DNA of 64,000 bases from Candidatus Aminicenantes bacterium (GCA_963754085.1 CAVWFA010000003.1:391854-455853), one strand, 5' to 3'. Shown: positions 29,278 to 63,424, numbered from the stretch's first letter. Numbers and translations: made by a program. Notes: a model not told the origin generated them from the letters alone.

Positions 29278-29348
29278 TAAAGAAGGGACCTGGTCTTCGC
29301 ATTTATGGTCGCCTCATTTGAAAATGCGAAGACCAGGTCCCTTCTTTA
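29278..29348. repeat. 71-nt palindromic element, perfect 27-bp arms (TAAAGAAGGGACCTGGTCTTCGCATTT / complement), 17-nt loop
   Basis: Arms at 29278-29304 and 29322-29348 are exact reverse complements. Confidence 0.9.
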
Positions 29349-29748: not shown

Positions 29749-29833
29749 GAGGGGGTCAAACCTAAACTTCTCATAATTTCGGGCCGGAGACTTTGCGCTA
29801 GGAAATTATAAGAATTTAGGTTTGACCCCCTCT
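29749..29833. repeat. 85-nt imperfect palindromic element (AGAGGGGGTCAAACCTAAA.. / ..TTTAGGTTTGACCCCCTCT)
   Basis: About 32-bp arms with one indel and one mismatch, 21-nt loop. Starts directly after the ABM stop codon. Confidence 0.85.
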
Positions 29834-34108: not shown

Positions 34109-34247
34109 TGGGGTCGGACCTCAGGAATAGACTTATTTATCAATTACTTAAGCCTGTTTTTTTAACTCTAAAAGGCTTAAAACCGGTGTTTTTGGCCTCA
34201 AAAACGAAGAGTTCGACTCTCTTTGTTTGAGCCGGAAGGGTTTTTTT
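34107..34247 (+). repeat. AT-rich structured intergenic element, copy X (starts AATGGGGTCGGACCTCAG)
   Basis: About 100 nt at roughly 70% identity to the reverse complement of 63324-63424. Contains GTTTTTG/CAAAAAC and AAGAG-TTCGACT-CTCTT hairpins and a T7 run. Confidence 0.7.
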
Positions 34248-49952: not shown

Positions 49953-51809
49953 TTAGAGGCCGTGGTACTTTTCGAGGATCTCGGCGTACTTGCGCTCCTC
50001 GAGCCGCAGGATCTCGGCGAAGCGGGGATCGTTCCTCAGCTTGTCGTAGAAATAGTCCCGGGTATTGTTGAGGTAGGAGAAGAAGTAGAGGTAGTCGTAA
50101 ATGTCCTCGAAACCCCGGTCGATGCCCGATTCGATCGTGGCCACCGCCTCGTCGAACATGCCCAGGGCCGCGTAGACGCGCGACCGGAAATAGGTGCCCC
50201 GCGACGGCCGGGACGCGTCGAGCGACGCCTCGATCGTGGCCAGGGCCGCCTTCCTGTCCCCGTTGGCCGCCGCGGCCAGGGCCCTCACGAGCCGGACGTA
50301 TGTGTCGCCCGGCGCCAGCGTCTCGGCCAAGGCCAGCTCGGCCGCCGCCGTGTCGTACCTCTTCATCAGGATGAGCGCCCGGGCCATGTGGCAGCGCGTC
50401 TTGACGTCGGTCGGGTCGAGCCCGATCATCTTGTCGTAGTCCGCCAGGGCCGACTCGAAGAGGCCCATCTGCTCGTAGGTATAGCCCCGCATCATGTACA
50501 TGTCCACCGTCGTGCCGCCGGCCTGGATGACCCGGGTGAAGTATTCGGCGGCCCGCTCCAGCATCCCGATGCTCCGGAGGAACCCGCCGATGTCGGTCAG
50601 GACATGGAGGCTCGACGGGTCGAGGGCCAGCGCCTTCTTGAGACAGGCGTAGGCCTGGTCGTTTTCTCGCCTGAAATAGTGGAACCAGGCCATCCCGACG
50701 TTGGTCTCGGCCCGGTCGGGGGCCATCTCGTAGGCGCGCCGGTAGTTCTCCTCCATCAGGCGCAGCGTGGCGGGGCTGTCCTCCTCGTAGACGAACCGGT
50801 ACTGGTAGGCGTCGCCCAGCCCGAGGTAGGCCAGGGGGCAGCCGGGGTCGGCCTCGCGGGCCTGGGTGAACAGGGCGATGATCTTCTCGAGCTCGGCCGG
50901 TTCGGTCGTGATCACGTACTTGCGGGCGATGGCCCGGGCCGTCTCATAGAGGCGGGTGGCCTGGACCGAGCAGAGGGCCAGGGCCTCGGGCCCGGACGAA
51001 GTCGGTACGCCGAAGGCGCGGCGGACGCCGTCGGCGATGCGGCTCTCGACGACGGGGATGTCGGCTTCCGTGCCCGGGACGTGGTCCGTCTTGAGCGGCG
51101 CGGCGCCGCGGGCCTCGCGGACCTCGTAACCGACGCGGATCTTCGAGCCGGAGCGGGCGAGGAAGCCGGCGACGAGCCAGCCCGCGCCCAGCCGGTCCGA
51201 GACGGCGGCGAGCTCGTCGGGTGTGAGCGGCGCGCCCGGCTCGAGGCCGAGCTTGCGCACGGTCTCGATCACGGCGGCGAAGGTGTAGACCTTGAGGTGC
51301 TCGGAGCTCCGCTGGAGATCCCGGATGAGGTGGTCGGGGACGGACTCGCGAAGGTAGTTGAGGCCGTCGTCGCCCGTCCCGTTGACGAAGGGCAGGACGG
51401 CGACCGCGGGGCGATCCCCGTTCGGGACGTAGTGGGGGTGGCCGTTGCTGATGACGCGCCAGCCGAGGACGCCGACGGCCATAAACGCCGTGAACCCGGC
51501 CAGAACGTACCAGCGACGGAACGAGGCGAAGGAGGTCGGGACGCGGAGGCCGAAGATCACGACGGCGTCGGGTCCGGACGCGGGGCCGGAGCCGGAGTGA
51601 GCCGGTTTCTCGGGATCGTGCTCGTGGAGCTTGGCGTCGAGCCACCAGTCGATCTCGTCTTTGTAGGCCATGACGCGGGCCTTGGGCGAGCCGTCGAGGC
51701 GGTGGACGGGGAGGCCGAGGTTCTCCTCCCAGCGGCGGCAGGTGCGGACGTCGCGGCCGAGGTAGGAGGCGATCTCCTTCCAGGACTGTAGAACTTCGCG
51801 AGCACCCAT
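49953..51809 (-). CDS. N-terminal HTH (SWKEIA.YLG...RT..RWE...GLPVH) - TM - periplasmic domain - TPR repeat protein
   Basis: 618 aa. Excisionase/MerR-like HTH, one TM segment, and multiple TPR-like repeats in the C-terminal half. Confidence 0.75.
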   Translation of the reverse strand: MGAREVLQSWKEIASYLGRDVRTCRRWEENLGLPVHRLDGSPKARVMAYKDEIDWWLDAKLHEHDPEKPAHSGSGPASGPDAVVIFGLRVPTSFASFRRWYVLAGFTAFMAVGVLGWRVISNGHPHYVPNGDRPAVAVLPFVNGTGDDGLNYLRESVPDHLIRDLQRSSEHLKVYTFAAVIETVRKLGLEPGAPLTPDELAAVSDRLGAGWLVAGFLARSGSKIRVGYEVREARGAAPLKTDHVPGTEADIPVVESRIADGVRRAFGVPTSSGPEALALCSVQATRLYETARAIARKYVITTEPAELEKIIALFTQAREADPGCPLAYLGLGDAYQYRFVYEEDSPATLRLMEENYRRAYEMAPDRAETNVGMAWFHYFRRENDQAYACLKKALALDPSSLHVLTDIGGFLRSIGMLERAAEYFTRVIQAGGTTVDMYMMRGYTYEQMGLFESALADYDKMIGLDPTDVKTRCHMARALILMKRYDTAAAELALAETLAPGDTYVRLVRALAAAANGDRKAALATIEASLDASRPSRGTYFRSRVYAALGMFDEAVATIESGIDRGFEDIYDYLYFFSYLNNTRDYFYDKLRNDPRFAEILRLEERKYAEILEKYHGL

Positions 51810-51888
51810 CGCTATATCCGTCTACGGAAATAACGCTTCTGCTAGGTATAAAGTATTCATAAGAAAAAGGATTTGTCAAGGCCCGCTT

Positions 51889-51951
51889 GGGGGTCTGACG
51901 TACTTTTCGCGTATCCCGGTTTTGAGGCAAGCGAAAAGTAGGTCTGACCCC
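51889..51951. repeat. GGTCTGAC-type palindromic element (GGGGTCTGACGTACTTTTCGC ... GCGAAAAGTAGGTCTGACCCC)
   Basis: Same outer architecture as 62301-62366, with a different inner stem. Confidence 0.85.
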
Positions 51952-52002
51952 GTCTTAGTCTTGTTCTTACCGGCTGCCCCTTTTTGAGCTAGAATACCCC
52001 AA

Positions 52003-52823
52003 ATGTCCCGCCGCCACCCGAAAGGTTATTGGTACCTGCCCGGGCTCCTCTACGATCTCGCCTTCAAGCGCATGTTCCGGGGCTTGCGGCGACGGGTCTC
52101 GCGGACGATCGAACGGGAGGGGCTCTATCCTTGGCTGGAGGTCTGCTGCGGCACGGGCGACCAGCTGCGGCACGCGCGGGGACATGTACCGAAGGTACGT
52201 GTCCCCCAAATTGGATTGGCCGAGGAGGGGTTTGCTTGGGGGACGGCGAACATGGAGCCCGGAACGGGTGTCCCCGATGAGCAAGCACAGGGGGTCGAGG
52301 CACGAGACGGCCGGGCCGTAGTTGGCCTCGACCTGAGCTTCGGCTTCGTCCGATACGCCGGGCCCGCGCGCCCCAGGTCCCGTTCATTTGCGGCGATGCG
52401 GCCCGACTCCCGTTCAAGACCGGCTCCATGCGGGCCGTCAGCGTGTCGTTCGGCCTCCACGACAAGAGCCTGGAGCTCCGGAGCGCGATCCTGGCCGAAG
52501 CGAAGCGAGTGTTGAAGCCGGGCGGGCGGCTCATCGCCGTCGATTTCGAGAACCCCTGGGACGCGGCCTCGCGCGCCGGGGCCCTGTTCACCCGGGCCAT
52601 CGAGCGGCTCGCCGGGCGGGAGCACTACGGCAACGGCCGGGATTTCCTGCGCCGCGGCGGCCTGCGGGGCTTTCTCCGGGAGAACGGTTTCGCCGAGGTT
52701 GCGCGCCGCGACGTCCCGGTCGGCTCGGTCAGTGTGGTCGTCGCGAAACTCGACTCGGATCGCCCTTGCGATTTGCCGCCCGCGGAGATTAAGATGGCGT
52801 CAAACCATTTGTTCCCGAGATAG
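52003..52823 (+). CDS. Class I SAM-dependent methyltransferase interrupted by an in-frame block of about 98 nt of palindromic-element sequence, plus one frame break near 52360
   Basis: LEVCCGTGDQL (motif I), then about 52 aa instead of the usual about 20 before VVGLDLS. FICGDAARLPF..SMRAVSVSFGLH, VLKPGGRLIAVDF. Confidence 0.65.
52178..52206 (+). repeat. Type-1 hairpin element (GGGGACATGTACC-GAA-GGTACGTGTCCCC) inside the methyltransferase ORF
   Basis: Arms identical to those of 9708-9736. Confidence 0.9.
52238..52275. repeat. Degenerate GGGGAC...GGAACGGGTGTCCCC element fragment
   Basis: The right end resembles the right arm of 47858-47879 (GGGAAACGGGTATCATGTCCCC) with an internal deletion. 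Confidence 0.5.
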
Positions 52824-52836
52824 AAACGAGGTTGAA

Positions 52837-54594
52837 ATGAGCCAAAGACCGATCATCCGCATCAGCCCTCCCGTCGGTGTCTTCCTGACCGTTCTGCTCG
52901 TTATCGCCGCGGCCTCCCCTGCCCTGCGCGCGGCCGACGAGACGACCGCGAAGGTGGACAAGATCTTCGCGTCATGGGACAAGACGACGTCGCCGGGCAT
53001 GGCCCTGGCCGTGATCAAGGACGGCAAGATCGTCTACGAGCGCGGCTACGGCATGGCCAAGCTCGAGGACGGCATCGTCAATACGCCCGATAAAGTGTTC
53101 GACATCGGCTCGGTCTCGAAGCAGTTCACCGCGGCCTGCGTGGCCATGCTCGTCCGGGACGGCAAGGTCCGGGTCGAGGACGACATCCGCAAGTACCTGC
53201 CCGAGATGCCCGCCTACGGGAAGCCGGTGACGGTCGACCACCTGCTCCATCACACCAGCGGCATCCGCGACTACAACGCCCTGCTCAGCCTGGCCGGGTT
53301 CCGGCCGGAATCGGACTCGCCCACGGTCGAGGAGGCGGTCGAGATCATCCGGCGGCAGAAGAAGCTCAACTACACGCCGGGCGACGAGTACTCCTACACC
53401 AACAGCGGCTTCTTCCTGCTCAGCCAGATCGTCGAGAGGGTCAGCGGGAAGTCGCTGAACGCCTTCGCCCAGGAGCGGATCTTCAAGCCGCTGGGCATGA
53501 CCAAGACGCTCTTCCAGGACGATCACACCCAGATCATCAGGGACCGGGCCACGGGTTACACGCAGGCCGAGTGGCGGCGGCTTCAAGATCAACATGAGCA
53601 ACTGGGACGAGACCGGCGACGGCAACGTCTACACGACCGTGCGGGACCTCTACCTCTGGGACCAGGCGTTCTACACCGGCGCGCTCGGCAAGGACCTGAC
53701 GGACATGCTCCAGACGACGGGCGTCCTCAACTCGGGCAAGGCCATCGATTACGCCTGGGGGCTCGTCGTGCGCGATTACAAGGGCCTCAAGGTGGTCGAG
53801 CACGGCGGGGCCTGGGTCGGATTCAGAGCGGCGATCGCGCGCTTCCCCGAGCAGAAGTTCTCGGTCGTCATCCTGGCCAATCTCGACTCGATCGACCCGT
53901 CGGGGCTGGCGTTCCGGGTGGCGGACGTCTATCTCGCGGAGGAGCTTAAGGGCGCGGCCAAGGCGCCGAAAGGGCGGGGCGGGCGAGTGCGGCGGCGGAC
54001 GGGGAAATGCGACGAAGGCCAAGCCCGAAGGCCGAGCCGTTCGCGGTGCCCAGGGCGGAGCTCGAGGCCCTTGTGGGGAACTGGGAGGACGTCGGGTTCG
54101 GCCAGTGGCTCGCGCTCTCGATAAAGGACGACAAGCTGACGGCGGCCCTGGGAGGCCGGAACTTCACGCTCAAGCCGATCGCGCCGGGGAAGTTCGTCGC
54201 GGCGGAGCGGGCGGACGTCGAGCTCGAGTTCAAGGCGGCCGATAAGGGCAAAGCCGCGACAGGGCGGATGACGGTCGGGAAGAGCCTGGAATTCCGGTTC
54301 GCGAAGGCGGCGCCGCTCAAGGCCATGAGCGCGGCCGAAATGGCCGGATATGCGGGGACTTATGTCAGCGAGGAACTGCTCGACGCCAAGTATGTGCTCA
54401 AGGTCGACAAGGACACGCTGGTCCTCAAGACGCGGGACGTGCCCAGGGCAGAGCTCAAGGCCATGGCCCCGGACAAGTTCACGGTCCCCGGCTACGGGCT
54501 CAACATCGAGTTCGTGCGAGGCCAGGGCGGCAAGGTGACGGGCTTCACGGTGAGCGTGGGCAGGGCGGCGGGGATCGTCTTCTCAAAGAAATGA
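52837..54594 (+). CDS. Exported serine hydrolase (beta-lactamase-like, SVSK motif) with a C-terminal beta domain; two frame breaks (about 53572 and about 53990)
   Basis: FDIGSVSKQFTA, YSYTNSGF. Continuation GGGFKINMSNWDETGDGNVYTT.. and ..PFAVPRAELEALVGNW.. run in successive frames. Confidence 0.75.
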
Positions 54595-54713
54595 ACGATG
54601 GCGCCGCGGGCCTCGAATGACAAACCTCTCTGAAATGACTCCGGCCCGCGCGATCGGGATCAAGCCGGATCAATTCGCACCGACGAAGCAGCCGCCTCCG
54701 TCAACCGCCGAGA

Positions 54714-57040
54714 TCAGGGCGTCACGGTCAGGGTCGCCCTGACGGTGACGCCCCTTCTGGCTGAAATTGTGACAGCTCGTGTCGACGTCACGGCAGACGT
54801 TGTGATCGAGAATGTCGCTGTCGTCGCCCCGGCCGGAACGGTTACTGACGCCGGCACCTGAGCAGTCGAGGTACGGCTGCTCGTCAGTGTGACGACCATC
54901 CCTCCGGCAGGCGCCGGTCCGGTCAATGAGACCGTACCTGTGGATGGGTTACCTCCGCGTACACTGCTTGGATTGAGGCTCAGCGAGGATGCCACGGGCG
55001 CCCTCACCGCAAGGCTCGCCGTCCGGCTGACGCCGTTGTAGAGGGCCGTGATCGTCGACGACCGATTCGAGGTCACGGGGCTCGTCGTCACCGTGAACGT
55101 CGCCGTGGTCGCCCCGGCCGCCACCGTCACCGAGGCCGGCACCTGGGCCGCTGTATTGCTCGAGGTCAGGCTGACCACTGCCCCGCCTGTCGGAGCCGGT
55201 CCACCCAGTATCACGGTTCCCGTCGAGGACTCCCCGCCCACAACCGTCGCCGGGCTCACGCCCACGGACGTCAGCGTCGCCGCCGCCGGCGCCGTCACCG
55301 TCAGGGTCGCCGTCCGGCTGACACTGGAATAAACGGCCGTGATCGTCACGGCCGTATCGGCAGCCACCGGGCTCGTCGCCGCCGTGAACGTCGCCGTCGT
55401 CGCCCCGGCCAGAACGGTCACGCTCGCCGGCACCTGGGCCGCCGCCGTGTTCGAGCTCGTCGTAGCGTGACCACGGCACCGCCCGGTCGGCGCCGGCCCG
55501 CTCAGCGTTACCGTTCCGGTCGAGGAGGTGCCGCCGGGCACAGTCGCCGGGCTCACGCTCACAGACGTCAGCGTCGCCGCCACCGGCGCCGTCACCGTCA
55601 GGGTCGCCGTCCGGCTGACACTGGAATAAGCAGCCGTGATCGTCACCGTCGTATCGGAGGCCACCGGGCTCGTCGCCGCCGTGAACGTCGCCGTCGTCGC
55701 CCCGGCCAGAACGGTCACGCTCGCCGGCACCTGGGCCGCCGCCGTGTTCGAGCTCGTCAGCGTGACCACGGCACCGCCCGTCGGCGCCGGGCCGCTCAGC
55801 GTCACCGTTCCGGTCGAGGACGTGCCGCCGGCAGAGCCGCCGGGCTGACGCTCACGGACGTCAGTGTCGCCGCCGCCGACGCCGTCACCGTCAAGGTCGC
55901 CGTCAGGGTGGCGCTGCCGTAAACAGCCGTGATCGTTACCGTCGTATTGGAGGCCACCGGGCTCGTCGTCACCGGGAACGTCGCCGTCGTCGCCCCGGCC
56001 GCAACGGTCACGCTCGCCGGCACCTGGGCCGCCGTGTTCAAGCTCGCCAGCGTGATTACCACTCGGCCCGCGGGCGCTGGACTGACCAAAGCCACCGTTC
56101 CTTGGAGGACGCACCGCCCGGCACCGAAGCCGGGGTGATGTTCACCCAGCTGAGCGTCGCTGCCGCCACGGTCACCGCCAGGGTCGCCGTCCGGCTGACA
56201 CTGGAATAAACAGCCGTGATCGTCACCGTCGTATTGGAGGCCACCGCGCTCGTCGTCGCCGTGAACGTCGCCGTTGTCGCCCCGGCCACAACGGTCACGC
56301 TCGCCGGCACCTGGGCCGCCGCCGTGTTCGAGCTCGTCAGCGTGACCACCGCCCCGCCCGCCGGCGCAGGTCCGCTCAGCGTCACCGTCCCGGTCGAGGG
56401 ACTCCCGCCCACGACCGAAGTCGGGATCAGGCTGATGGAGCTCAGGACCGGCGCGGGACGCCGTCATGGTCACCGTCAGGGCGGCCGTACGGGTCACCCC
56501 GATCGTAGAGGGCCGTGATCGTCACCGCCGTATTGGAGGCCACCGGGCTCGTCGTCGCCGTGAATGTCGCCGTTGTCGCCCCGGCCAGAACGGTCACGCT
56601 CGCCGGCACCTGGGCCGCCGCCGTGTTCGAGCTCGTTAGCGTCACCACCGCCCCGCCCGCCGGCGCAGGTCCGCTCAGCGTCACCGTCCCTGTCGACGAA
56701 ACGCCGCCCTGCACTGAAGCCGGGCTCACGCTCACGGACGTCAGCGCCGCCTCCGGCGCCATCACCGTCAGCGTCGCCGTCCGATTGATACCGTCATAGA
56801 GGGCCGTGATCGTCACCGCCGTGCTGAGCGCAACCGGGTTCGTCGTGGCCGGGAACGTCGCCGTCGTCGATCCAGCCGCCACCGTCACCGACGTCGGCAC
56901 CTGGGCCGCCGCCGTGTTCGAGCTCGCCTGGACGTAACCACCGTGCCCGCCGGCGGGCGCAGGTCCGCGAGCGTGATCGTTCCGGTGAGACACCCGCCCA
57001 CCGTCACCGGGTCTATGCCGAGCCGATGAGCGCAACGCCT
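54714..57040 (-). CDS. Thr/Ala/Val-rich Ig-like tandem-repeat surface protein (about 8 x 98 aa), many frame breaks; possibly continuous with the CE4 gene upstream
   Basis: Repeat unit: LTSVSVSPATVPGGTSSTGTVTLSGPAPTGGAVVTLTSSNTAAAQVPASVTVLAGATTATFTAATSPVASDTTVTITAAYSSVSRTATLTVTAP. Confidence 0.7.
54740..57010 (-). repeat. About 8 tandem copies of a roughly 294-bp coding repeat
   Basis: The marker GTGATCGT recurs at 55048, 55339, 55636, 55929, 56216, 56515 and 56808. Spacings are 291/297/293/287/299/293, which are not all multiples of 3. Confidence 0.9.
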
Positions 57041-58089
57041 GCCTCGGCCTGGGTGGACATCGGCCGGTACTCGGTATGCGTCGAAATAGACGACTCTTCG
57101 GCTCCCTCGAGGACGGAATCGACGAAGGCGGACGAGTCCCCTTGAGTGATATTGACCCTAAGCCAGGCGGACGGCACGATGCTCCGGACCGTCAGCGGTT
57201 CCCTGAACACGGACACGTTAAGCGGGTTCGTCAGGCTCAATTGGATGGCAGAAGCATCCGACGAGAGCACGCTGAGCGTGGACGCTTTCCGCTCGCGCAT
57301 GTACTGGGCCACTTCCCCGTACGTGGCCATCCAGAGATTCCTAGCTACGATATGGTCAAGAAGCGTTGCCATGTAGCCGGTGTTTTCGGCAGGCACGGCA
57401 TGCAGATACACACAGTACCAGGCATTGTAGGTGATCGCGGTGTCCAGCTTGGCGTCTAACAAGGAGATGGCCATGGTGAAATCAATGTTCTCAGCGGCCG
57501 TGTTATAGAAATTGACGGCCTTGAGTTGTCCGAACTGTATGCCCGGGGGCCACGGCCAGAATTCCGGAATGTCCTCGTAGAAGTTAAAATTGCCCCCTTC
57601 GCTCCCGGCCCAGCCGCCTCTCGCGGCGATGTAGAATTCGCTGGTGACGGCCTGCACAAGGGAATTGCTGTCTGTATAGGGATAGGAGATAGACAGACAC
57701 GGCTGCGAGAGAATGCGCTGATTGATCACTCGCTGGGATTCGCTCAGCAGCTCGTACCGCATCTCTGATTCGGACAAGAAAGCGAGATCAGGGTGGGTGA
57801 GGGTGTGGCTCGCGATCTCATGGCCTTGCCCCGCGAGCGTTAACCACTGGTCCCAGGGGACCTCGGTTGTGGCCGTGGTCACAAAAAAAGTGGCTTTCAG
57901 ACCCCGGGCGTTCAGAAGAGGCACGGCGTTCGTGATCTGAGTCAAGTACCCGTCATCGAAGGTCACGGAAACGGCCCCGGCCCGGTTGTGCCTCCAAGGC
58001 GTGATCTGATGGGCCTGCGCAAAGGCTGTTCGCAAAGGAAGAAGAAGTCCGATCAAAGCGCAGAGGACAACGCGAGAGATCGTGGTCAT
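57013..58089 (-). CDS. Secreted polysaccharide deacetylase (NodB/CE4 domain)
   Basis: Signal peptide from ATG 58089. VSVTFDDGY, HEIASHTLTHPDL and YPYTDSN motifs. Confidence 0.8.
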   Translation of the reverse strand: MTTISRVVLCALIGLLLPLRTAFAQAHQITPWRHNRAGAVSVTFDDGYLTQITNAVPLLNARGLKATFFVTTATTEVPWDQWLTLAGQGHEIASHTLTHPDLAFLSESEMRYELLSESQRVINQRILSQPCLSISYPYTDSNSLVQAVTSEFYIAARGGWAGSEGGNFNFYEDIPEFWPWPPGIQFGQLKAVNFYNTAAENIDFTMAISLLDAKLDTAITYNAWYCVYLHAVPAENTGYMATLLDHIVARNLWMATYGEVAQYMRERKASTLSVLSSDASAIQLSLTNPLNVSVFREPLTVRSIVPSAWLRVNITQGDSSAFVDSVLEGAEESSISTHTEYRPMSTQAEAGVALIGSA

Positions 58090-58558
58090 GTTTGCGTTCC
58101 CCTTGCCCGAAGCGGCCGACCATCCGGCCTTTTCCGGGCCCGTCAGTTCCTGCTTCCCCAAAACGCGACTCTCCGTTTCTTGAAGCTTTGGTCATTTCTC
58201 TTCCCCCTCTCCTCTTCCCCGAACTTGGCGAAACCTCCCCGGGAACGAAGGGAAAACGACCCAGCTTCAGCAATGGCGGTAGATAGTACAACATTAGATT
58301 CCCCGCTTCCCCGTGAGGATATTTTCTAGGATATCGCATCCGCCCCGTCAATGCCAATGGGGAGAAGCCGCCCATCATGGACTTCTGCTCCTCGCCCCGC
58401 ATGTCTAGGACATTCCTCGAACCACTTCCTTGAGGCGCTATTCTGATGATTCCAAGGCCAAATGTAAATCCCCATTTCGTATTCACCCATTCGGGTGTAG
58501 CCAATAGCTTAGAGATCTAAATAAGAGACACCAGCCGGTAGACCTCTAAAGGGGTTTT

Positions 58559-59182
58559 TTATGGAGCTGACCTGGTTTTATTCGAAGGCTCTTTGTCGTC
58601 CTTGGTCTGAAGATAGAGAGCGGCCAGGATGCCGATCCGGGAGTGTTTGCCCAGCTTCAGAGCCAGGCTCTTCAAGTATCCCTTCACGGTGTTCGAGCTC
58701 AGGCCCATCGCCTGCCCTATCTCTTTGTTGCTAAGGTCCGAAAAAAGGTGGCGCACGAGGTCCTGTTCTCTTGGAGAAAGCCCTTTCTCGCGGAAGATCA
58801 TCTGGAGTCGCCCCCGGGCGGCATCGGCCCGTTCCAGAACGAAAATATAACTCGGATAACGGCTGACGGCCCCCAGAAGCCGGCCGTCCAAGGCTACGCC
58901 GCGGACTTCGTACTTGCGACGATGGCTCAGAAAAGTATCGAGAGGCGGATGAACGCCGCCCTCCCGATATTCCGGCGCCACCGGCGCTTTCGCCCGCTTC
59001 TCCAAGAGCGACACCCATTTGGAGCACAGGACTATGACCGACTCGCGGGTTGGGATGGTCTTGCCGGTCGGGTTCTTGGCGAAGGCGAGCATGTTTTCCG
59101 CCAAGGAGCTGATATTGACCCGGGCCTCGGTCCCGGGAGGTCCCGGCTGATAGACGATAAAGGCCATCGCTTTATTGATCAT
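58559..59182 (-). CDS. LuxR-family (GerE-type HTH) transcriptional regulator
   Basis: C-terminal LSPREQDLVRHLFSDLSNKEIGQAMGLSSNTVKGYLKSL. Confidence 0.8.
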   Translation of the reverse strand: MINKAMAFIVYQPGPPGTEARVNISSLAENMLAFAKNPTGKTIPTRESVIVLCSKWVSLLEKRAKAPVAPEYREGGVHPPLDTFLSHRRKYEVRGVALDGRLLGAVSRYPSYIFVLERADAARGRLQMIFREKGLSPREQDLVRHLFSDLSNKEIGQAMGLSSNTVKGYLKSLALKLGKHSRIGILAALYLQTKDDKEPSNKTRSAP

Positions 59183-59362
59183 GCCCGTCCTCCCGTCCGT
59201 CAGGCCATCTTATCAAATCCGGTCGCCGCCCGGCAAATCAGCTTCGACACGCGAGCCGCTCTCCGATACGAGGGCGCTTATTGATTATTCTCGCCATCCG
59301 CGCTAGGCTCCCAAGAGACCGCCCGCCAGGGGATTGAGCGAAGCCAGGGCGAAGGAGTCAAA

Positions 59363-60652
59363 ATGGCCAGAATCACGATGCTCGGCACGGGGCTGATCGG
59401 CAGGTTCTATACACTAACGATCCATGGTCTCCGGAGCCGCGATCGCGTCGTCAACGTCTATTCGCGTTCGGCGGAGAGGGCTCGCGCGTTCGCCGCGGAT
59501 CGCGGAATCGACCGTTGGAGCGATGATCTGAAGAAGGCCGTCCGGGACCCGGAATCCGAGATCGTCGTCGTCGGCGTGCCGAACAATGTCCATCTCGAGG
59601 CCGTTCGTCTCGCGGCGGAGGCGGGCAAGGCCGTCTTATGCACGAAGCCGCTCGGGCGCACGGCCGCGGAGGCGCTCGAAATGCTTCGTGTCGTTGAGAA
59701 AGCGGGGGTCTTCGCCGGCTACCTCGAGGATCTCGTCTACACCCCGAAAACCCTCAAGGCGCTCGCTTCGATGAAAAAGGGCACGATGGGACGCATTCTC
59801 TGGACACGATCCCGCGAGACCCATCCCGGACCGCACAGCGCCTGGTTCTGGGATGCGGAGCAGTCGGGCGGCGGCGCTGTCATCGATATGGGCTGCCACT
59901 GCATCGAGATCGGCCGAATCTTCATCGGCAAGGACAAGCGGCCCCTCCGGGCCTTCTGCTGGGGCGCGACCCAGGTCCATCCCATCGAAGCCGAAGATCA
60001 CGCCATCGGCCTGGTCGAGTACGAGGGCGGCGCCATCAGCCAGTTCGAGGTCAGCTGGACGTTCCGCGGCGGGATGGACCTGCGCGACGAAGTCAGCGGG
60101 ACCGAAGGGACGATCCGCCTCGATCATTTCCTGCGTACGGGCTTCGAGATGTTCACGGCCTCGGGCGAAGGGCGGGTATGTGGCGGAGAAGAGCCGAGAG
60201 TCAGAAGGGCTGGCTCTTCCCCGGTCGGCGACGAGGCCCACGAGCTCGGCTACGTCCACATGTTCCAGGATATGCTGGACGCATGGGAAGCGGGACGCAA
60301 GCCGACGGAGACCTTTTACGACGGCTACGTTGTCAATGCCATCATCGACGCCTGCTACAAGTCGATGAAGTCGGGCCGATGGGAGCAGGTCGAGTTAGGA
60401 TGGAAAACCCTTTGGAGGGAAGCCCCGGAACGCGAAGGGCGACCGAGGGTCGCAGCCGCCCCCCTGAAGGGGCCGAAAAAGGCCCTCGGGAGGCCCCAGG
60501 AAACGAAAACGGGGGGAAATCGGGGGCAAGGCCTGGGGAAGCCCGGGAAAGCGGGTTTCATCGCGATCAAAGTGGAGCGCCTCCCGGACGGCCGGACCAA
60601 GCGGATCCTGAAAGACAAAGCTACGGGCCGCATCGTCGAGGAGATCGATTGA
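59363..60652 (+). CDS. Gfo/Idh/MocA-family NAD(P)-dependent oxidoreductase with a locally scrambled segment (60165-60225) and a C-terminal extension of about 90 aa
   Basis: [13 protein letters not shown] Rossmann N-terminus, [18 protein letters not shown] and [10 protein letters not shown] appear in the two other frames. Confidence 0.8.
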
Positions 60653-60731
60653 CATCCGAAGGTTCAAGACCGGACCACTTCCTGCAGGGAACTAGAATTC
60701 GGCGAGAGACTGGCTGAGAGAGGAGCTAGCG

Positions 60732-62278
60732 ATGGACAAACACTCGCGCTGCCGAGAACATGCCTGGCCAGCCGCCTGCGGACCTATCCTTATCGCCTCG
60801 CTAGCTGCCCGTCGGCCGCCCGTCTTTCCGCCCAGGATCCGGCCGGCCGCTCCGGCGCCTCGCTCGAGGCCGCCAAGGCCCCCGCGGTCGCCGCGCGCCG
60901 GGCCAAGCTGATGGAGATCCACAAGGACGGCGTCATCATCGTCCCTTCGCAATACAAGGCCCGCGACGGAGCGATGCAGGACAATCGCAATTTCCTCTAT
61001 CTCACCGGGCTCAAGGAGCCGGACGCGGTCCTCGTCCTCGACCCGGCCGGCAGCCCTCGCGAAACCCTGTTCCGACGGGCATCCGGCGGCCCCGGAGCTC
61101 GCGGCGCCTCGGGCGGCGGGATGGTCAGCCCGGGCGGTCCGGATGCGCCGATGGTGGCCGTCGCGCCTCGCGGCCAGGCCCCCGCTCAGGAAGCTCCCGC
61201 GCCCGACAAAGGTCTTGTCGAAAAGCCGAACTCGCAGCTCGCCTCCGCGCTCTTCGGCGCCACGATGGCCGGACGCGCCAAACGGGTCCTCCTCCCCTTC
61301 TCCGACTTCGACTTCCTCTCCCGCGCGTTCACCGGCATGAATCCCTTGGCCCAGGCCGAGGCCGTCCTCAACCTCGATCCGACGCTCTCCGAGATGCGTT
61401 TGACCAAGGACGCCGGCGAGATCGCGGCCCTGCGCGAGGCCATCGACCTCACGGCCGAGGCCCTCAACGAAGCGTACCGCGCGGCCGAGCCCGGGATGCG
61501 CGAGGTCGACCTGGCCGCGATCCTCCGCTACGCCTTCGACAAGCGCGAGACGGAGGATTCGTTCCTCCAGGCCGCTTCCGGCCCGAATTCGACCAACGTC
61601 CATTTCGGGGCGACGGCGCGCCCGCTCGCGGCCGGCGACCTCGTCGTCTTCGACGTCGGGGCCTGGATCCGCGGCTACACGTCGGACATCAGCCGGACCA
61701 TCCCGGCGAACGGGCGTTTCACGAAAGAGCAGCGGGAGATCTACGGGCTCGTTCTCGAGGCCGAGAAGCACGGCTGCCGGAGGCTCGTTCCCGGCGTCAC
61801 TTTCAAGGCGGTCCAGACCGAGGTCGAAGACATCCTGATGGCCGGGCTGGAGAAGCTCGGCCTGGTCACGGACGTCAAGAGCGCCTGGCAGCGGCGCCTC
61901 TACATCCAGCACGGGTTCGGCCACGGCATCGGCCTCGACGTCCACGACGTCTGGAGCTGGCACAATGCGCGGCTCGACAAGGTCGCGATGGCGCCCGGCA
62001 TGGTCATGACCATGGAGCCGGGATTGTATTTCCCGGAGGTGCGCTTCGACGCGTTCCTCGACGCGCTCAAGGGCAAGGCTCCCGACGCGGAGATCGCGGC
62101 GTTTCGCGAGAAGGTCGGGCCGGTCTACAAGAAGTACGCCGGCATGGGCGTCCGGATCGAGGACGACGTCCTGATCACAGAGGGCGGGAGCGAGATCCTG
62201 TCGAGCCGCGTCCCCAAGGAGATCAGTGACATCGAGAAGCTGATGAAGGAGAAGAGCCCGTTCAATCAGATGAAATAG
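60732..62278 (+). CDS. M24-family Xaa-Pro aminopeptidase, exported; frame break near 60810 between signal peptide and body
   Basis: ATG 60732 after GAGAGGAG gives MDKHSRC..GPILIASLAA. Body motifs: FDVGA..GYTSDISRT, HGFGHGIGLDVHD, MEPGLY, RIEDDV. Confidence 0.8.
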
Positions 62279-62283
62279 GCAGG

Positions 62284-62366
62284 ATAGGGGTCTGACTGAG
62301 ATAGGGGTCTGACGTGATCTTTACGCCCTCATTGTCCCTAAAGGCGTAAAGAGCAGGTCTGACCCC
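62284..62366. repeat. GGTCTGAC-type element: solo ATAGGGGTCTGAC followed by a full hairpin (GGGGTCTGACGTGATCTTTACGCC ... GGCGTAAAGAGCAGGTCTGACCCC)
   Basis: Fills the 98-nt gap between convergent stop codons (62276-62278 and 62377-62379). Confidence 0.85.
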
Positions 62367-62376
62367 TTCTTGTCTC

Positions 62377-63298: not shown

Positions 63299-63323
63299 TG
63301 AACCCTCCGAAAAACACAATATT

Positions 63324-63424
63324 CTGTTTTCAGGGCCAAAAACATCGATTTAAGGCCTTTATCGTGCCAATTTATCGGTCTAACTTATTGATTTCTATGT
63401 ATATTTCTGAGGTCCGACCCCATT
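63324..63424 (-). repeat. AT-rich structured intergenic element, copy Y (minus strand; starts AATGGGGTCGGACCTCAG)
   Basis: An 18-mer identical to 34107-34124, then about 70% identity over about 100 nt, including the TGTTTTTGGCC..AAAAC hairpin. Confidence 0.7.

Follow-up and report, generated by a model that had tools for sequence, protein, structure and literature searches.

The window analysed here, a stretch of 64,000 nucleotides from a Candidatus Aminicenantes bacterium (GCA_963754085.1, CAVWFA010000003.1:391854-455853), contains two imperfect hairpins whose arms both carry the box GGTCTGAC in direct orientation. The source genome (G000) comprises 2.96 Mb in 32 contigs, has 66% G+C and is 73% complete; the comparisons below draw on a sample of 42 genomes from its genus. 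The parts of the two asymmetric hairpins, which were folded as single-stranded DNA (ssDNA), are as follows.

51890-51951, + strand: asymmetric hairpin copy 1, with its 5' box GGGGTCTGACG at 51890-51900
51901-51910, 51911-51930 and 51931-51940, + strand: inner stem TACTTTTCGC, loop and returning stem GCGAAAAGTA of copy 1
51941-51951, + strand: 3' box GGTCTGACCCC of copy 1
51952-51956, + strand: 3' family flank N-TCTT of copy 1 (here GTCTT), assigned from the flank consensus; AAGA-N is absent on the 5' side
62287-62296, + strand: lone additional 5' box GGGGTCTGAC, lying 17 nt upstream of that of copy 2
62304-62366, + strand: asymmetric hairpin copy 2, with its 5' box GGGGTCTGACG at 62304-62314 and its 3' box GGTCTGACCCC at 62356-62366
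62315-62327, 62328-62342 and 62343-62355, + strand: inner stem TGATCTTTACGCC, loop and returning stem GGCGTAAAGAGCA of copy 2
62367-62371, + strand: 3' family flank TTCTT of copy 2

Folded as ssDNA, copies 1 and 2 reach -20.3 and -22.9 kcal/mol, respectively (z = -5.7 and -8.9), values that none of 200 shuffles equalled. The original prediction, made from the window alone, had described a box-stem-loop-stem'-A-box layout with GGTCTGAC in direct orientation in both arms, identical T:T and G:G mismatches in both copies, and inner stems that are unrelated between the copies yet self-complementary. Each of these features is present in both hairpins, with the T:T mismatch at pair 7 and the G:G mismatch at pair 11. 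GGTCTGAC occurs five times in the window, always on the + strand, and four of the five occurrences make up the two hairpins; the count of this 8-mer is in itself not significant (5 against 2.6 expected, with 10 of 100 shuffles reaching 5). The direct repeat is also partly a by-product of the sequence, because GGTC-N-GACC is a 9-nt palindrome and direct and inverted copies differ at its centre only. Copy 2 is placed between the stop codons of two convergent genes, one of which is an aminopeptidase gene. Beside copy 1, at a distance of 11 nt, lies a near-consensus promoter (TTGACA-16-AATACT, 51852-51879, minus strand) for the gene at 49953-51809, and this promoter is kept next to the orthologous hairpins in three relatives (G003, G004 and G023).

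The two hairpins are not a separate entity; they belong to a low-copy subtype of a family with about 45 copies per genome. The family layout is (T)AAGA-N-GGGGTCAAACC-T, an AT-rich stem of ~17 nt, a unique GC-rich loop, the returning stem, and A-GGTTTGACCCC-N-TCTT(A), such that the palindrome extends outward through (C/T)AAGA-N on either side. The asymmetric 3' box is one base away from GGTTTGACCCC. The similar ends that the original prediction had noticed on other types of element are real: GGTTTGACCCC occurs 94 times in G000, against 29 for the next commonest 11-mer ending in GACCCC, hairpins with GACCNGGTCCCTTCTT occur about seven times, and GGTCCGACCCC ends a separate element of ~95 nt. Almost all occurrences of GGTTTGACCCC are paired, which gives 42-47 hairpins in G000 (~45 copies, of which 36 are exactly canonical), spread singly over at least nine contigs. 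A census of canonical hairpins in 24 genomes of the genus and 16 sampled outside it found the family in 20 of the 24, with hundreds of copies across the genus. When 32 distinct canonical copies are aligned by their arms only, 95.6% of stem cells are paired and 16 of the 28 pairs change on both sides, a result that none of 500 shuffles reached. Inner stems fall into the subtypes TAAACTTTTCCACTTTT, T(T/A)AATTCTTATAATTT, TATACCTTTTTA(A/G)TTT and TACACTTTT(C/A)CAGTTTT.

The loops are 3-48 nt long except in two copies, have 59% G+C against 21% in the inner stems, and are each unique. I considered whether they might be captured or targeting sequences and rejected the idea, since no loop matches elsewhere in G000 apart from one that is a copy of a 125-nt repeat. 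A DnaA-box rule for the inner stems was likewise rejected: only subtype TAAACTTTTCCACTTTT has an 8/9 match to TTWTNCACA, and matches of at least 7/9 number 26 against 29.6 expected in shuffled arms (p = 0.82). Extension of the stem into copy-specific sequence, considered as a sign of fold-back synthesis of the second arm, is in slight excess (2-7 pairs), but under a definition of the boundary too loose to be relied on.

The asymmetric subtype was sought across the genus with a pattern that fixed 19 of the 22 box positions and left G1, G11 and C46 free. G000 contains a third copy at C16:401942-402025 and no others. Ten sister genomes contribute twelve more, for a total of 15 copies in 11 of the 42 genomes (1-3 per genome, 13 distinct arm sets) at no fewer than four orthologous loci, judged from their flanks. 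The original prediction had proposed that, with more copies, the outer mismatches would stay conserved and the inner stems would co-vary beyond shuffled controls, and both expectations are borne out. Every one of the 13 distinct sequences lacks pairing at pairs 7 and 11, and all nine variable inner pairs are altered on both sides (36 cells against 11.2 in shuffled alignments, none of 500 being as high). Shifting the partner column by 1-3 lowers inner-stem pairing from 88% to 34-52%. G1, G11, C46 and the T12-A35 pair are invariant although the search pattern left them free.

The two arms of this subtype differ in kind. The 3' arm, together with its N-TCTT flank, is the normal arm of the GGGGTCAGACC/GGTCTGACCCC clamp variant, whereas the 5' arm carries two substitutions relative to the 5' arm proper to that variant (A7 to T, C11 to G) and is missing the AAGA-N flank. 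A further 5' box, often degenerate, lies 14-20 nt upstream in 7 of the 15 copies; in G052 this extra box is the canonical GGGGTCAAACCTAA. In G003, G004 and G023 the inner stems of the copy 1 orthologues differ, with compensated changes. At locus A the orthologous inner stems are TACTTTTCGC, TGTTCATTGC and TGCTTTTTACGC within flanks that are ~83% identical, differences that I am unable to account for by point mutation alone. The copy 2 orthologue in G024 has the same mismatches, and decayed asymmetric versions are present in G020 and G021.

The combination of co-varying stems and conserved mispaired boxes had been read as the signature of a structure with protein-recognition sites and not of a random palindrome. 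Chance can indeed be set aside, given the co-variation of the stems and the conservation of the outer boxes, and a plausible Y1 partner exists. The remainder of the claim needs revision, as the GGTCTGAC type is not an independent element but a minor subtype of a larger, perfectly palindromic family, and as co-variation within a DNA palindrome, being common to both strands, does not in itself prove selection on RNA or on protein sites.

No gene for a DNA- or RNA-binding protein adjoins the copies of the element, where the original prediction had proposed to look, and the candidate partner is encoded on another contig. A search of G000 with the Pfam model Y1_Tnp found two genes, on contigs C16 and C23. 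The C16 gene (C16:385980-386951, 324 aa) lies outside the window, is present as a single full-length copy in the 73% of the genome available, and is bracketed by arms of the hairpin family, with GGGGTCAAACCTCCACTTTTACAG on its upstream side and CCGTAAAAGTGGAGGTTTGACCCC on its downstream side. Its two convergent neighbours end in TAA stop codons that fall within the arm flanks. Its product scores 47.8 bits against Y1_Tnp. Across 40 homologues the HUH histidines H60 and H62, F98-Q99 and Y119-x-H121-x-N123-P124 are invariant, and the family consensus NHYHL / FQ / YIHLNP agrees with the subclass 2.1 signatures NH[YF]H, FQ and Y[IV]HLNP (Table 1 of PMC6006769). An AlphaFold model of the protein (predicted local distance difference test score, pLDDT, of 81) has as its best match in the PDB 4ER8, the E. 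coli RayT bound to a hairpin of the repetitive extragenic palindrome (REP), followed by the IS200, ISDra2 and IS608 transposases, with sequence identities of 12-21%. C-terminal residues ~235-315 of the model match the DNA-binding domain of Mycobacterium tuberculosis DnaA (3PVP; target TM-score 0.77, root-mean-square deviation 2.0 Å); Pfam has no match to this region, and the likeness to DnaA is one of fold. By its motifs and its modelled structure, the C16 protein is a putative HUH/Y1 transposase of the RAYT (REP-associated tyrosine transposase) or TIRYT type, of subclass 2.1, with a DnaA-like tail. Many of its close homologues were met on contigs of only ~1.1 kb, as expected if flanking repeats break metagenome assemblies. 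The protein search also gave relatives at 99% and 92% identity (P0002 and P0003).

Full-length homologues of the C16 gene are found in 27 of the 42 genomes at 40-64% identity (loci L051-L077). The same two convergent neighbours surround the transposase in more than 20 genomes, and arms bracket it in more than 20 relatives. At least five different flanking hairpin types occupy this slot among the 27 genomes, and a fixed slot with divergent alleles looks like allele replacement. Two full-length copies are present in G011, G012, G043 and G052, one full-length and one split copy in G001, and only a broken copy in G047.

Each homologue is bracketed by a variant of the arms of its own, and in some genomes this variant also dominates among the dispersed hairpins. 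GGGGTCAAATC with the inner stem TCCACTTATTAAATTTT flanks the gene in G011, G043, G045 and G053, and hairpins combining this clamp and stem number 18-29 in exactly those four genomes and 0-3 elsewhere. In G055 and G012 the gene's arms are of the GGGTCAGACC/GGTCTGACCC type, and the GGGTCAGACC clamp is frequent only in G055 (9 copies), G012 (6) and G048 (22). In G020 the gene-flanking inner stem, TTTAATTTTTTAATTTT, is also the dominant stem of the genome. Other alleles carry hairpins beginning AAGAAGGGACCTGGTC or AAGAAGGTACCGGGTC, the former being the type with the GGTCCCTTCTTT end listed in the original prediction; this sister type flanks the transposase in G003, G049 and G057, with related variants in G014 and G048. 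Overall, the clamp of the gene's own arms is matched by the dominant hairpin family in seven genomes, and in five of them the inner stem is matched too. Changes in the clamp are compensated on the opposite arm, which indicates that pairing of the clamp matters.

At the site orthologous to that of copy 2, the one locus at which such a comparison was made, the genomes differ. The same asymmetric hairpin recurs in G024, the site is empty in G010, a canonical hairpin of short length occupies it in G001, and G002 has exactly one box, AAGAGGGGGTCTGACCCCTTCTT. G019 and G020 have a GGGGACA-type hairpin of the other hairpin family, accompanied in G020 by a decayed 5' arm; the occupant in G004 is a 125-nt repeat ending in CCGTAGGTTTGACCCC, and that in G006 an ordinary GC-rich hairpin. 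The genomes compared are ~75-88% identical around hairpin sites, which blurs intergenic boundaries; judged from these alignments, intergenic sites that are orthologous acquire, lose and exchange copies. No target-site duplication was found at any assumed boundary among 46 non-duplicate copies in G000, whose flanks are ~25% identical, the random level. This absence fits a Y1 mechanism like that of IS200/IS605 and not a DDE transposon.

Systems of this kind have been described before. TIRYTs are tyrosine transposases with terminal inverted repeats (TIRs) on either side, which are long and share GGGGWSAS, and their repeats form moderately abundant families, often as dimers (PMC3733652). Quentin et al. 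(2018) equate subclass 2.1, a widespread one that is present in ~15% of the strains they surveyed, with the TIRYTs of Di Nocera et al. (2013), and found no REP-like sequences near its genes (PMC6006769). The Aminicenantes system resembles these TIRtrons both in its protein (a Y1/HUH protein that exceeds RayT in length, whose C-terminal part is a DnaA-like helix-turn-helix and which carries NH[YF]H, FQ and Y[IV]HLNP) and in its repeats, since long inverted repeats beginning GGGG(T/A)(C/G)A bracket the gene and the same repeats are scattered elsewhere, mostly as inverted dimers. I know of no TIRYT for which activity or a substrate has been demonstrated. Described members include Acidobacteria, a phylum neighbouring Aminicenantes.

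Agreement with GGGGWSAS varies among the arms. The canonical clamp GGGGTCAA agrees at 7 of 8 positions, failing at the eighth base, whereas the variant GGGGTCAG fits, as in the gene-bracketing arms of G012. In G055 the 3' arm fits (GGGGTCAG on the bottom strand) and the 5' arm begins with CGGGTCAG. T7 of the asymmetric GGGGTCTG subtype replaces the motif's conserved A. In contrast to what was reported for subclass 2.1 (PMC6006769), the link between gene and hairpin is explicit here and varies from genome to genome.

REPINs, which go with RAYTs, offer a second comparison (PMC3116915, PMC5581495). They too are inverted doublets that form a long hairpin with conserved arms, a less conserved spacer and common compensatory changes, with a single-copy, vertically inherited transposase that is flanked by its own repeats, and with all copies extragenic. 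However, a REPIN arm is a small palindrome (REP) with a GTAG-type tag and its spacer is nearly fixed in length, whereas the loops here are unrelated and range from 3 to ~50 nt. I found no internal palindrome and no GTAG tag in the arms, the foot of which is AAGA-N-GGGG; the arms are thus unlike a classical REP, an imperfect palindromic unit of 20-40 nt with a GTAG/GTGG tag at its foot. Finally, the TnpA transposases of IS200/IS605 elements (IS608, ISDra2) and E. coli RayT (4ER8, PMC3479197) share the catalytic fold, act on single-strand hairpins and strand-distinguishing imperfect palindromes, and leave no target-site duplication, but they are without a DnaA-like domain, and the hairpins here, with stems of 28 bp, are much longer.

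On these grounds I consider it very probable that the hairpins are REPIN-like, non-autonomous inverted dimers of TIRs and constitute the repeat family of a TIRtron that contains the C16 gene. That degree of confidence covers the family assignment only and does not extend to the origin of the mismatches. By analogy with IS200/IS605, IS608 and E. coli RayT, the arms would fold back once the DNA became single-stranded, and the Y1 domain would recognise the foot of the hairpin (the AAGA-N flank with the GGGGTCAAACC clamp) and would cut and rejoin that strand. If the enzyme recognised the clamp in this way, the sequence of the clamp would be constrained, whereas the AT-rich inner stem would need only to pair and would co-vary, and the loop would be free.

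The GGTCTGAC copies form an old, low-copy subtype with an altered 5' arm. As for their mismatches, the reading that I prefer, at about even odds, is inheritance from one founder of the subtype. The founder's mismatches would then have been retained because they fall in the clamp, the constrained part of the element. The mismatches are confined to the 5' arm that is without its flank, and T7 breaks GGGGWSAS, which is why they may mark an inherited altered arm and not recognition sites.

Several observations sit uneasily with these readings. The best NCBIfam model for the C16 protein, REP_Tyr_transpos NF047646, scores 65.8 bits, below its cut-off of 80, and a sequence search of the protein against PDB chains gave no match at E <= 1. 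In G000 the inner stem that flanks the gene, TCCACTTTTACAG, represents a minor subtype, and several stem subtypes occur beside one gene. Many hairpins but no full-length gene were found in G002 and G010, whose assemblies are incomplete, and in G006 and G017, which are 94-95% complete, and in G003, whose gene carries another clamp type, 20 canonical hairpins are retained. Copies with the same arms have unrelated loops, which simple copy-and-paste of whole hairpins does not explain, and a founder effect leaves unexplained why orthologous inner stems differ while the boxes stay identical.

A rival reading, that the mismatches are functional, I regard as unlikely. Direct GGTCTGAC boxes would put the same cleavage or recognition motif on one strand on both sides of the inner hairpin, as a strand-specific HUH enzyme would need, while T:T and G:G would tell the top-strand from the bottom-strand hairpin; the mobile unit would be the inner hairpin with one box, inserting beside a GGGGTCTGAC target. 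Imperfect palindromes are the rule in end recognition by IS200/IS605 elements. The boxes are invariant in all 13 distinct copies across the four or more loci and 11 genomes, although every variable position of the inner stem has changed, and the invariance includes G11 and T12, which lay outside the search pattern. The solitary extra 5' boxes upstream of nearly half the copies also count in favour of function, as does the single box at the copy 2 site of G002. That bare box fits a founder and a strand-specific substrate alike, however, because slipped-strand deletion between direct repeats yields the same product. The invariance must also be read with the search in mind, since the pattern was itself selective for intact boxes, and G020 and G021 contain decayed versions. 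Furthermore, the canonical family is far more prolific with perfectly inverted arms and no direct repeat, whereas the asymmetric form reaches only its 1-3 copies per genome, and in no genome was a transposase gene with asymmetric arms at its sides found.

A more specific version, in which the GGTCTGAC elements are a strand-specific substrate and not decayed copies, the direct boxes mark the two single-strand cleavage sites of the TIRYT and the inner hairpin is exchangeable cargo, seems to me distinctly improbable. If true, it would show where TIRYTs of subclass 2.1 cleave and which unit they mobilise, and would explain the swapping of inner stems at fixed genomic sites.

It is still harder to credit, though worth weighing, that the hairpins are RNA-level elements under host selection (bidirectional terminators, stabilisers of mRNA 3' ends or small RNAs) and that their association with the transposase is incidental. 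My own gene calls, made roughly from codon-usage log-odds and covering 81% of G000, place 47 of 47 copies between genes and ~25 within 12 nt of a stop codon. Convergent-gene sites are over-represented (14 of 47 copies, against 188 of 1246 intergenic gaps genome-wide), and in ~12 arms the TAAGA flank itself supplies the stop codon through its TAA. In one relative a terminator-like GC-rich hairpin replaces copy 2, and E. coli REPs act on mRNA ends. Paired uptake sequences (the DNA uptake sequences, DUS, of Neisseria and the uptake signal sequences, USS, of Haemophilus) and intrinsic terminators likewise lie just after stop codons as inverted pairs with a variable loop; here, however, the arms are nearly all paired, without a large excess of single intragenic copies. 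No Rfam family matched at gathering score anywhere in the window, and the tail is only N-TCTT, without a U-tract. A terminator scan does not call the hairpins, although its limit on loop length would exclude them in any case. About 12 copies, copy 1 among them, lie between divergent genes, a context that is uncertain given the rough calls, and asymmetric copies are found in both orientations with respect to the genes beside them, evidence against a role in RNA that depends on the strand. The loops of 14-48 nt are unconstrained. The arms bracket a transposase gene and the clamp tracks the transposase allele, neither of which a function in host RNA predicts.

There is next to no chance that the hairpins derive from a DDE transposon as miniature inverted-repeat transposable elements, for example of the Tn3 family, whose inverted repeat presumably starts with the same 11 bases, GGGGTCTGACG, or that they are integron attC-like sites with conserved unpaired bases, which they resemble in having conserved outer boxes around a variable palindromic centre: target-site duplications are absent, the similarity to the Tn3 repeat stops after 11 nt, the copies are dispersed singly and not in cassette arrays, and the attC R/L box consensus appears to be absent from the arms. 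I rejected a Tn3 relationship of GGGGTCTGACG, as no Tn3-type transposase (DDE_Tnp_Tn3) was found in the 73%-complete G000 and the literature matches to the string are cloning-vector sequences.

The window also contains other repeats, among them three hairpins for which no strand is assigned.

29280-29346: sister-type hairpin AAGAAGGGACCTGGTCTTCGCA...TGCGAAGACCAGGTCCCTTCTT, the source of the GGTCCCTTCTTT end
29752-29829 (C3:421605-421682): canonical member of the family, GGGGTCAAACCTAAAC...TTTAGGTTTGACCCC
52178-52206: second-family hairpin GGGGACATGTACC-GAAG-GTACGTGTCCCC, of the family that flanks the C23 Y1 gene

The C23 gene (C23:12567-13287, ~229 aa) is Y1/RAYT-like, without a long C-terminal domain, and has a GGGGACAYGTACC...GGTACRTGTCCCC hairpin twice on its upstream side and once on its downstream side. 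The GGGGACAYGTACC family has ~29 copies in G000, and 30-mers that are 100% identical occur in many sister genomes; together with the C23 gene it is a second, separate REP-RAYT system in G000. The second-family arm GGGGACAC fits GGGGWSAS. Within the window, an open reading frame resembling S-adenosylmethionine (SAM) methyltransferases (52003-52515) has extra sequence at 52171-52321 that includes a GGGGACATGTACC...GGTACGTGTCCCC second-family hairpin and leaves the frame open. Relatives align to 52014-52170 and 52322-52498, and in them far less sequence separates these two parts.

A family of ~95-nt elements runs CGTTTTTGGCCCTAAAAAC, TTTAAGCC, an AT-rich part, TAACTNATTGAT and TGCTGAGGTCCGACCCC, and corresponds to the GGTCGGACC type listed in the original prediction. 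Nine copies were found, at window positions 63320-63421 and 34110-34210 (approximate) and seven times on C4, C13 and C24. One fixed end is clamp-like. The element, which is no simple hairpin, might represent a small RNA gene or a different mobile element. The ~110-125-nt repeat, by comparison, contains GATATTTC(C/T)CAGAAG, GCTCCGAGTCGCTCCGC, CTTCTGATGGTCGC and a terminal CCGTAGGTTTGACCCC, and only its last ~15 nt are common to the hairpin family. It occurs at C15:157631-157760, C12:35150-35266, C3:104521-104721, C16:27400-27509 and other sites, as well as at the copy 2 site of G004 and within the same gap in G042. Beyond the genus, G027, from another family of the same order, was the only one of the 16 genomes with the clamp. 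Its nine hairpins have a GGGGTCAAACCTACAC clamp (for example C1:694442-694516) and a more complex interior that includes TTTGTCACTTAGTGCAA and TTGCACTTTTTGACAAAG and is partly not self-complementary.

Neither of the two sequence strings looked for was found in this context in the literature searched, and Aminicenantes do not figure in the text of PMC6006769 or PMC3733652. The kind of system is already known (PMC3733652, PMC6006769, PMC3116915); what is new is the genome-by-genome match between a subclass 2.1 gene and its hairpins, together with the asymmetric subtype. The hairpins are selfish DNA of a familiar kind, met here in a phylum that is unstudied. For annotation, they account for dozens of intergenic hairpins per genome, for stop codons that fall in repeat flanks and for contig breaks in Aminicenantes assemblies. 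The genus provides a natural series of matched enzyme-substrate pairs for recognition by Y1 and DnaA-like domains, one that could be used to study the coevolution of a transposase with its repeats.

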